Shown: positions 43,260 through 45,002, numbered from the stretch's first letter. The stretch is 64,000 nt of DNA from Escherichia coli (GCF_002854065.1 NZ_CP024147.1), one strand, 5' to 3'. Program-made: numbers and translations. Notes: generated by a model not told the origin, from the letters alone.

Positions 43260-44870
43260 CTATTTAATTCCCTCATCATTGATAAGGTTGGACATCTCTT
43301 TCAACATGAGAGTCATTGAAGCTTTCGACCAATTTAGCGGAATGATAGGGCTTGGCGCTTCATGCAAAGTTCCCGACTTGTGGATATAGTTATAGCTTTC
43401 GGGAAGTGCCATTTCTGGTACGCTCCTGCCATTTGCACCAATCATATTCTCGCCTGTTATTTGGGCCAATGATCTATTCATAAATTGTACTGAGTCATTC
43501 AAATACTCTTCTTTTCTTGATTCTTTATAAACAATTGCTGCTGATTTTGCATACCATGAGTCAAAAAACCATTCTGCTTCTGTTGATGGAATGAAGCTCT
43601 TTTCTCTTTTTGCATGCGAATTTTGATCGGTATCGGTTTTAATATCATTGAACCAAAAATTTGCCGACTGATAATTATCCTTCTCGTATCTTTTTATACC
43701 ATACGGACCTGCTAGTTTTTTAACTATTTTTAGAACTTGCTCTTTTCTTCTGGTGTTTATCTTTGAAAGATTTGCAGGATAAATAACATTAAGTAAAGCC
43801 GCATCGGCTTCTCTGTAATGTTTATCTTTTTCCAGATAACCTGGGGATTCTCCCCCTAAATCAAGCTGTAACGTTATTCTTTCATAACCTTTATCTATGA
43901 GGTGGTTCAACCTCGTTGTTGAAAGAGGTTCATCCAGTTCATTGGCTTTAGCTTCGCGTAGTAAATCAGAGACAAAAACAGATTCTTTCTTCGAGAGTAA
44001 GTTCGACAAACGTTCCAGTCCAGAGGTCACCAGTGCAACGGAAGATGTGTTTAATCGGGCATCTTCCTCCCACGCTCCGGAATCTTCCATAACATAGAAA
44101 TTGGCTTTATCCAGATAAGCAATCAGCAACGCAACCGATTTTAATCGGTCACCTTTTTGCCAATCTTCAGCGTTAATAGTACCAGTATTGATTGCTTGTA
44201 TAAGGAGATCAAGATAAAGACCTAACGCATCATTTTGTTTATGGTTCCACAGCTGCGGCTTGCCTTCTTCCTGCACATCTGCCATCACGGGGGAGTTGCT
44301 GTCAAATCGGATATGCACAGCATTCATTTGCCCGGGAATACCATCCAGTCGTTTTGGGTTGCTAATGATGTCCTGCATCCGCTTAATCTGGTCGGGCGTA
44401 GACATATAATCCCACAGGGTGAGCAGAACCTTTTTTGCGGCTACACTATTTCCCTGGTCTGATACTAATGCCATATAGCCCCATAAACTATCCCTCAGCC
44501 AGACAGCATCATAGTGGGTTTCTGCCGCTGTTTTGTCATCTTCGAAAGTAGAAGCAAGAATAAACGTTACCCAGGGTTTCTCCGTCAACGTTAACTTTCG
44601 TGTGTTTTCTGTTAATGTTAGCAATCCTTGAATTTCGTCTTTGGTATAGTGGCTCTTTATTTCATTTTGTAATTTGGCTGAGTGAATCAGAAGACGATAA
44701 TTAGGATACTTATCTGGATTTAACGATAAATAACTTTTATCTGTTGCTGCCCCCGTGGAATTAAGAATGTTAAATACAGATTCACTCGTCACTTCTGCCC
44801 CTGTCGCCTGGCATGTGCCGCACGAAAATATACCAGCGAGCAGAAGAGTTAATGCAGATTTCCCTTTCAT
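43260..44870 (-). CDS. Secreted glycoside hydrolase family 15-like protein (glucoamylase/trehalase-type fold); possibly full-length ygeQ-type ETT2-flanking gene
   Basis: ORF 43260..44939; likely start MKGKSALTLLLAGIFSCGTCQA (signal peptide) at 44870, alternative ATG at 44882; GH15 signature motifs HYDAVWLRDSLWGY and DSGAWEED. Confidence 0.75.
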   Translation of the reverse strand: MKGKSALTLLLAGIFSCGTCQATGAEVTSESVFNILNSTGAATDKSYLSLNPDKYPNYRLLIHSAKLQNEIKSHYTKDEIQGLLTLTENTRKLTLTEKPWVTFILASTFEDDKTAAETHYDAVWLRDSLWGYMALVSDQGNSVAAKKVLLTLWDYMSTPDQIKRMQDIISNPKRLDGIPGQMNAVHIRFDSNSPVMADVQEEGKPQLWNHKQNDALGLYLDLLIQAINTGTINAEDWQKGDRLKSVALLIAYLDKANFYVMEDSGAWEEDARLNTSSVALVTSGLERLSNLLSKKESVFVSDLLREAKANELDEPLSTTRLNHLIDKGYERITLQLDLGGESPGYLEKDKHYREADAALLNVIYPANLSKINTRRKEQVLKIVKKLAGPYGIKRYEKDNYQSANFWFNDIKTDTDQNSHAKREKSFIPSTEAEWFFDSWYAKSAAIVYKESRKEEYLNDSVQFMNRSLAQITGENMIGANGRSVPEMALPESYNYIHKSGTLHEAPSPIIPLNWSKASMTLMLKEMSNLINDEGIK

Positions 44871-45002
44871 AAAATATTCCATCAATCGTTTGTTAAAAGC
44901 GTAGATAACCATAGACTGGCCCCCTGAATCTCCAGACAACCAATATCACTTAAATAAGTGATAGTCTTAATACTAGTTTTTAGACTAGTCATTGGAGAAC
45001 AG

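Follow-up and report, generated by a model that had tools for sequence, protein, structure and literature searches.

A complete pkgA gene encoding a predicted GH15-type protein at the glyU edge of an ETT2 island remnant in Escherichia coli

The pkgA locus next to glyU

The DNA considered here is a stretch of 64,000 nucleotides (nt) from Escherichia coli (GCF_002854065.1 NZ_CP024147.1). This whole stretch is termed the window in the following, and all coordinates are counted from its first letter. Next to the tRNA gene glyU, at the edge of what remains of the island for the second type III secretion system of E. coli (ETT2), it contains an unbroken copy of pkgA, a gene of which strain K-12 retains the two fragments ygeQ and ygeP. 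The elements at this end of the island are arranged as follows:

43260..44870, minus strand: pkgA coding sequence (full-length ygeQ/ygeP), 536 amino acids (aa) plus a TAG stop codon at 43260-43262, delimited by the open reading frame (ORF) and the start annotated for K-12 and by the Prokaryotic Genome Annotation Pipeline (PGAP)
44907..44911 (pkgA side) and 46243-46247 (second copy): 5-bp target-site duplication AACCA, reading TGGTT on the minus strand
44912..46242, plus strand (InsC/InsD transposase ORFs): insertion sequence (IS) IS2, 1331 bp, 41 nt upstream of the pkgA start, between pkgA and glyU and divergent from pkgA
46440..46513, minus strand: tRNA-Gly(CCC) gene glyU, the island insertion landmark, located with ARAGORN

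In the ORF listing of the window, one long minus-strand frame (43260..44939) spans the interval 43260-44882, in which an earlier note on this DNA had placed a secreted glycoside hydrolase of the GH15 type. A start at 44939 was rejected, since for its first 23 codons this frame runs outward from the terminal inverted repeat of IS2, which makes the upstream extension an artefact. The stop codon given in the earlier note holds, while its start is an in-frame ATG (MEYFMKGK) four codons upstream of 44870, a trivial difference. The ribosome-binding site of the ATG at 44882 is no better than that of the ATG at 44870 (MKGKSALT...), and the latter agrees with PGAP entry WP_000676915.1 (536 aa) and with the K-12 ygeQ annotation. 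The three peptide strings that had been singled out are all encoded, MKGKSALTLLLAGIFSCGTCQA as residues 1-22, HYDAVWLRDSLWGY as residues 119-132 and DSGAWEED as residues 263-270. The placement at the glyU-proximal edge of the island is likewise correct, pkgA being the last gene ahead of IS2 and glyU, and the gene order at glyU matches that in K-12, O157, GPEC1446, XJ34 and E. albertii. The G+C content of pkgA is 40.6%, as compared to 50.4% for the whole window. With more than 250 homologues and a wide presence in E. coli genomes, pkgA is a real gene and no chance ORF. Its existence is no news, as it has been annotated, named and discussed since 2003, and, where the gene is intact, its product is a "glycoside hydrolase family 15 protein" in PGAP.

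Alleles in K-12 and other E. coli strains

Comparison with K-12 bears out the suspicion that the gene corresponds to ygeQ and is shorter in that strain, ygeQ and ygeP being fragments of the same gene. In K-12 MG1655, ygeQ (b2863, 264 aa) is equivalent to PkgA residues 1-264 and ends with ...FYVMEDS, directly before GAWEE. The pseudogene ygeP (b2862) corresponds to approximately residues 283-381 and is cut by IS2H. In O157:H7, pkgA is a frameshifted pseudogene. Unlike the K-12 and O157:H7 versions, the copy in the window is full length; it carries a G101V exchange and the IS2 element 41 nt upstream. Elsewhere the gene appears under the names ECs3736-ECs3737 (O157 Sakai), EC042_3075 (enteroaggregative E. 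coli (EAEC) strain 042) and b2863/b2862 (K-12). Known intact alleles are 99% identical and reside at the same locus, between glyU on one side and a ghoT-like gene and eivF on the other; the protein from the window is identical to the GPEC1446 allele in 532 of 536 positions and to that of XJ34 in 534 of 536. The main value of these observations lies in a clean-up, in that the window shows whole what K-12 keeps as two pieces, and that the fold and the catalytic residues guessed in the earlier note hold up.

Predicted fold and nearest relatives

The AlphaFold model of PkgA is confident; over residues 1-20, pLDDT (predicted local distance difference test) is 51-54. According to this model, PkgA is a single-domain protein in which a short N-terminal subdomain (approximately residues 23-110) precedes an (alpha/alpha)6 barrel of the GH15 type (approximately residues 110-536). 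The best eight structural matches are GH15 or GH15-like throughout. Among proteins in the Protein Data Bank (PDB), a search with the single sequence pointed at alpha and beta, regulatory subunits of phosphorylase kinase (PhK; E 0.089 for PhK alpha and 0.0016 for PhK beta), and a search with the family profile returned only these two (1.3e-7 and 7.5e-5, respectively). As far as sequence comparison can tell, the closest relatives of the PkgA clade are thus the glucoamylase-like D1 domains of PhK alpha/beta. Many bacterial members of the wider clade, about 430 aa in length, bear the label "phosphorylase kinase" in UniProt. PkgA is a relative of the D1 domain and not a PhK subunit: PhK (PDB 8JFK) is eukaryotic and cytosolic, its alpha and beta subunits comprise 1000-1200 aa in five domains (D1-D5) and belong to a kinase holoenzyme, whereas PkgA is bacterial, 536 aa long, predicted to be exported and made up of one barrel that matches D1 only. 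PhK beta has lost the catalytic residues (PMC10978961). Among bacteria, this clade stands closest to the glucoamylase-like domain of PhK alpha/beta.

Two GH15 enzymes of known structure serve for comparison. Isomaltose glucohydrolase KfIG from Kribbella flavida (GH15, PDB 5Z3A; 371-372 aa) shares 14% identity with PkgA, in which about 90 residues form an additional N-terminal subdomain and which carries a predicted signal peptide. Glucoamylase from Aspergillus niger (GH15, PDB 3EQA; about 14% identity), which HMMER does not reach from the PkgA profile, degrades starch, is secreted and glycosylated, and possesses a starch-binding domain. The catalytic domain used here as reference for the latter matches 3EQA in 442 of 442 residues (994.6 bits).

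The relatives form a compact clade, distinct from the large classical GH15 family. Of the candidates scored in a protein search, 257 were related at E<=1e-3, and an exhaustive HMMER search of 1.84 billion cluster representatives returned only 872 proteins with E<=1e-3, of which 597 reached E<=1e-10 and 229 reached E<=1e-30. The cluster from E. coli is 98% identical and comprises 13,903 member sequences. Homologues occur in E. albertii (76% identity), Yersinia enterocolitica (58-60%) and Commensalibacter (about 54-55%), as well as, at 40-50% identity, in Elusimicrobiota, Planctomycetota, Synergistaceae, Clostridiales, Bifidobacterium and Bdellovibrionales. Across the 5426 complete genomes of E. 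coli, at least part of pkgA occurs in 3986 and >=80% of the gene in 2968; it is chromosomal in every case, with a median of one copy per genome.

Predicted catalytic and subsite residues

Positions on which an enzymatic role of PkgA would depend include the following:

44475..44516, minus strand: HYDAVWLRDSLWGY block, residues 119-132; in the hhalign alignment, W124/R126/D127 correspond to W52/R54/D55 of subsite -1 in A. niger glucoamylase
44061..44084, minus strand: DSGAWEED block, residues 263-270; W267-E268-E269 corresponds to W178-E179-E180 of the A. niger enzyme and to W184-E185 of PhK alpha
44067-44069, minus strand: E268, predicted general acid, from alignment with a hidden Markov model (HMM) to Glu185 of PhK alpha and with hhalign to Glu179 of A. 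niger glucoamylase
43398..43400, minus strand: E491 in LPESYN, predicted general base, aligned to Glu400 of A. niger glucoamylase with the wider-clade profile

In A. niger glucoamylase, Glu179 is the acid and Glu400 the base. E268 is situated between helices 242-255 and 275-292 and is invariant in all 75 members of the family alignment as well as in all 40 of the wider clade, where E269 is also fully conserved. E491 is the sole invariant acidic residue in the loop 470-512, between helices 454-469 and 513-531, and is kept in 39 of the 40 wider-clade proteins. In GH15 enzymes, the general-acid Glu is located in the loop from helix alpha5 to alpha6 and the general-base Glu in that from alpha11 to alpha12 (PMC12446779). 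When the 12 long helices of the model are taken in order, E268 falls into the former loop and E491 into the latter. Glu185 of PhK alpha, the counterpart of E268, is one of two catalytic Glu residues named for the D1 domain (PMC10978961).

With a profile of the wider clade that includes distant relatives of about 430 aa, hhalign aligned PkgA and glucoamylase from end to end (residues 66-532 with 2-435). This alignment pairs W208/Q212/D214 with W120/Q124/D126, R394/Y395/D398/Y400/W406 with R305/Y306/D309/Y311/W317, E491 with E400 and W514 with W417 of the A. niger enzyme. Of the conserved GH15 regions, S1, S2 and S4 make up subsite -1; the acid belongs to S3 (WEE) and the base to S5. The aligned catalytic and subsite positions are invariant or nearly so among the 75 relatives; R126 is fully conserved there, and W124 and D127 are each found in 74 of the 75. 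The predicted catalytic Glu pair, in whose absence the assignment to GH15 would have been untenable, is thus present as E268 and E491, with several concordant lines of evidence, each modest when taken individually, converging on E491 as the predicted base. A single protein of 1360 aa (P0249), multidomain and possibly a phosphorylase-kinase-like subunit, has lost the predicted base Glu (CPGSYY versus CPE-YY) and kept the WEE motif; it is the only such member in the wider-clade alignment.

The N-terminus

Pattern and hydrophobicity scans of the N-terminus gave two features:

44805..44870, minus strand: predicted N-terminal export signal, residues 1-22 (MKGKSALTLLLAGIFSCGTCQA)
44820-44822, minus strand: codon for Cys17 in the lipobox-like motif GIFS|C17

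A basic n-region (MKGK) is followed by the hydrophobic core ALTLLLAGIF and by the lipobox GIFS|C17, which fits a PROSITE-style pattern; an alternative site for signal peptidase I, CQA|TG, follows residue 22. The cysteine is shared with the E. albertii protein (SVLA|C17), in which the flanking residues are different. The K-12 fragment is annotated as "putative lipoprotein YgeQ" and appears in UniProt Q46797 as "Uncharacterized lipoprotein YgeQ". The Sec-type N-terminus with its lipobox pattern and the naming of the fragment as a lipoprotein in K-12 and UniProt are in line with the signal peptide described in the earlier note. A crude scan of the N-termini of the 75 relatives yielded 18 with a lipobox, 32 that are hydrophobic and signal-like and 25 with neither, the last group including proteins of the Bifidobacterium and Clostridiales type.

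Proposed function

Taken together, the data suggest that PkgA is an exported, probably lipid-anchored, inverting exo-alpha-glucosidase of the PhK-related GH15 clade, a reading to which we assign a probability of roughly 60%. It builds on fold, motifs, conservation and homology, which are shown here; export, enzymatic activity and a substrate of the alpha-glucoside kind are predictions. PkgA would be exported by the Sec pathway, most likely be lipidated on Cys17 and act at the outer membrane or within the periplasm, where it would most likely function as an inverting exo-alpha-glucosidase of the glucoamylase type, with Glu268 protonating the glycosidic oxygen and Glu491 activating a water molecule for attack on the anomeric carbon of the alpha-glucosyl residue at the non-reducing end. 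This residue would be held by W124/R126/D127, W208/Q212/D214 and R394/Y400/W406.

A number of results weigh against this proposal. That PkgA is a Sec-exported putative lipoprotein we infer from sequence patterns and database names. Pfam family PF00723 matches PkgA marginally (E 3.1e-4, 20.2 bits, residues 117-417 on model positions 35-309 of 427), no meaningful match was obtained in a search of NCBIfam, and HMMER family-profile searches of the PDB did not reach any classical GH15 chain up to E=10. The end-to-end alignment with glucoamylase has an E value of 0.0014 and a low nominal probability of 17.8%. Other attempts were rejected: the profile of the 75-sequence family against the single A. 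niger sequence reached a probability of 5%, placed four blocks and misplaced the C-terminal block, and a C-terminal sub-profile as well as a Smith-Waterman alignment put this block into the wrong register. A literature search retrieved no functional study or measured activity for any member of the PkgA clade, and the neighbourhoods of eight homologues lack a shared partner for sugar utilisation or transport and with it a clue to the substrate. By profile, membership in GH15 is borderline (PF00723 is recorded in 42 of the 75 relatives at E<=1e-3, the best value being 1.8e-7), and the case rests on fold and motifs. The GH15-like character put forward in the earlier note is supported by the barrel fold, the motifs and the conserved catalytic and subsite residues, with the nearest relatives being PhK D1 domains and not classical glucoamylases.

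A further point against the proposal comes from the PhK subunits. With PhK alpha/beta, hydrolysis was detected neither of maltose nor of isomaltose or glycogen, despite the presence of both Glu residues in PhK alpha (PMC10978961). As the PhK subunits are the closest relatives by sequence, PkgA could be a non-catalytic glycan-binding or regulatory protein that has kept the pocket and does not hydrolyze, similar to PhK D1. We regard this as unlikely. Both Glu residues and the set of -1 subsite residues are near-invariant both among the 75 relatives (38-76% identity) and in the wider clade (identity 22-28%), a pattern expected under selection for catalysis, the sole clade member seen without the base Glu is the 1360-aa multidomain protein mentioned above, and the PhK assays covered three substrates only. 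Dextran dextrinase weighs against the proposal in a different way, as it retains both Glu residues and is yet a retaining transglucosidase (PMC12446779). The conserved Glu pair therefore leaves the mechanism unfixed, and PkgA might be a retaining transglycosidase or an active enzyme of the same clan with a specificity for mannosides, of the invertase type or of another kind. Such a reading appears to us about as improbable as that of a non-catalytic protein: the eight top structural matches speak against a specificity other than for alpha-glucosides, and the glucose-binding residues of glucoamylase subsite -1 are matched one for one in PkgA.

State of the gene copy in the window

By its sequence, pkgA in the window is intact, with early signs of decay. 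The first of these concerns the protein:

44568..44570, minus strand: V101 (GTA), the G101V exchange in the motif PWG(T/S)F, which replaces a near-invariant glycine

Of 49 aligned family members, 46 have glycine at this position, as do 38 of 40 proteins of the wider clade; its counterpart in A. niger glucoamylase is the Gly within SGIVVASPS. K-12, GPEC1446, XJ34 and the cluster representative all have Gly101. The second sign is IS2, which is identical to IS2H of K-12 in 1330 of 1331 positions. The uninterrupted spacer in K-12, GPEC1446 and O157 contains a single TGGTT. The junction of IS2 and pkgA is absent from all 5426 complete E. coli genomes. It may occur in some draft genome, given that a 559-aa E. 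coli protein in UniProt (A0A2J7L3C3, 97% identical) agrees exactly in length with the IS2-extended ORF 43260-44939. Scans for promoters and terminators around pkgA gave nothing above the shuffled background, and no promoter was found by a consensus scan of the native glyU-pkgA spacer. A G+C-rich hairpin with a stem of 8 bp (GCGGTCCT...AGGACCGC, 43223-43246, minus strand) lies 14 nt past the pkgA stop codon and is not accompanied by a T-run; the terminator scan did not report the hairpin at 43223-43246.

Most of ETT2 itself has been lost from this genome, in that everything between a point just past yqeG and mid-sctC is missing beside two tandem copies of IS1:

39417-40188 and 40212-40984: tandem IS1 copies that replace the part of ETT2 from just past yqeG to mid-sctC
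40975-41922: 5' remnant of sctC, 315 codons

Whether pkgA is a decaying relic here, with its frame intact and expression or proper folding lost, is a question to which we would answer yes with somewhat less than even odds. IS2 with its clean 5-bp duplication lies 41 nt from the ATG and cuts pkgA off from everything farther upstream, G101V hits a conserved glycine and does not occur in any of the four other E. coli alleles compared, the ETT2 part between yqeG and mid-sctC is lost, with the two IS1 copies beside it, and pkgA is broken in K-12 and O157:H7 and therefore dispensable. On the other side, neither a frameshift nor a stop interrupts the 536 codons, only 2-4 amino acids differ from intact alleles, the AlphaFold model is still confident, and IS elements can provide outward promoters. 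The frame has been kept, and the gene is probably poorly expressed or its product weakened.

Relation to type III secretion

In Escherichia, pkgA travels with the low-G+C ETT2 island at glyU. It has been speculated in the literature that PkgA is an effector injected by ETT2 that interferes with glycogen metabolism of the host. In the passages concerned, this role is proposed with reference to Pallen 2003 (PMC3977695, PMC2808357), and the corresponding part of the EAEC 042 genome paper, citing the same source, treats EC042-3075 likewise (PMC2808357). The mBio 2018 paper on ETT2 leaves pkgA unmentioned. The resemblance of PkgA to PhK alpha/beta would fit such a role, as would the position of pkgA at the ETT2 edge, by the gene for the InvF-like regulator EivF, in E. 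coli as well as in E. albertii. The linkage to type III secretion system (T3SS) genes has a parallel on a contig from metagenome DRR526056 (L016, 1-14659), where a 65%-identical homologue has prgHIJK/orgA as neighbours in a T3SS locus of another layout, probably located on a plasmid. The homologue is flanked on one side by prgH-prgI-prgJ-prgK-orgA together with genes for an IagB-like transglycosylase and a HilA-like regulator, and on the opposite side by the F-type partition genes sopA/sopB, which share about 79% identity with their counterparts on enterobacterial plasmids, and by a gene for a SopD-pentapeptide protein. This is probably a plasmid-borne system of an enterobacterium, of the type encoded by pathogenicity island 1 of Salmonella (SPI-1). 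It constitutes a second, differently arranged association of pkgA with a SPI-1-type system. In a search of the known plasmids in PLSDB with this contig, only sopAB were matched (about 79% identity), and no plasmid carries the locus.

We consider the injected effector very unlikely. The predicted Sec-type signal/lipobox N-terminus would direct PkgA to the periplasm and is unexpected of T3SS substrates, and the homologue on the metagenomic contig likewise has a hydrophobic signal-like N-terminus. T3SS linkage is seen in E. coli, in E. albertii and on this contig and not in Yersinia, Commensalibacter, the Bifidobacterium-type contigs or Bdellovibrionota; no T3SS was present within 7-8 kb of the homologues in these groups and in others, nor was one nearby in Clostridiales. 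In addition, many E. coli strains retain pkgA despite deletions of neighbouring T3SS genes and the loss of the larger part of this gene set. The combination of a Sec-type N-terminus with homologue loci free of T3SS argues against an injected effector, an argument that can also be read from existing database annotation. It also agrees with the statement in the earlier note that the protein is not a standard T3SS component, as most homologues reside in genomes without a T3SS nearby.

Alternatively, PkgA from Enterobacterales might be a periplasmic or surface-located accessory for glycan processing that travels with SPI-1-type islands, analogous to the lytic transglycosylases carried by such islands, with a substrate that is maybe outside the known GH15 repertoire. 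We put this forward as a speculation with a rather slim chance of being correct. If it were true, the substrate of PkgA could reveal what is recognized by the pocket of PhK alpha, which is intact and apparently silent.

Further observations

A gene for a protein of 422-470 aa without a Pfam match lies ahead of the signal-less homologue, in the same orientation, in every one of the Bifidobacterium-type contigs. These candidate conserved partner genes are located as follows:

L005, 6674-7942, same strand as the homologue: candidate conserved partner gene
L006, 1035-2303, same strand as the homologue: candidate conserved partner gene
L012, 5502-6914, same strand as the homologue: candidate conserved partner gene

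A 75-nt "gene" downstream of the Yersinia homologue was considered as a tRNA-Gly gene and is not one. The burden of IS copies suggests that the DNA comes from an E. coli lineage that is Shigella-like or rich in such elements. A third IS1 copy is found in the window beyond glyU:

47435-48202: third IS1, between actS/ygeR and xdhA

Directly downstream of pkgA, a hydrophobic ORF of 59 aa (VINKLLLAYLIGLVV...) is located at 43014-43193 on the minus strand. PGAP annotates it as "GhoT/OrtT family toxin" (Pfam Toxin_GhoT_OrtT), and in the ETT2 literature it appears as the ydcX homologue ECs3735. This GhoT/OrtT-like ORF is kept beside pkgA in both E. coli and E. albertii.

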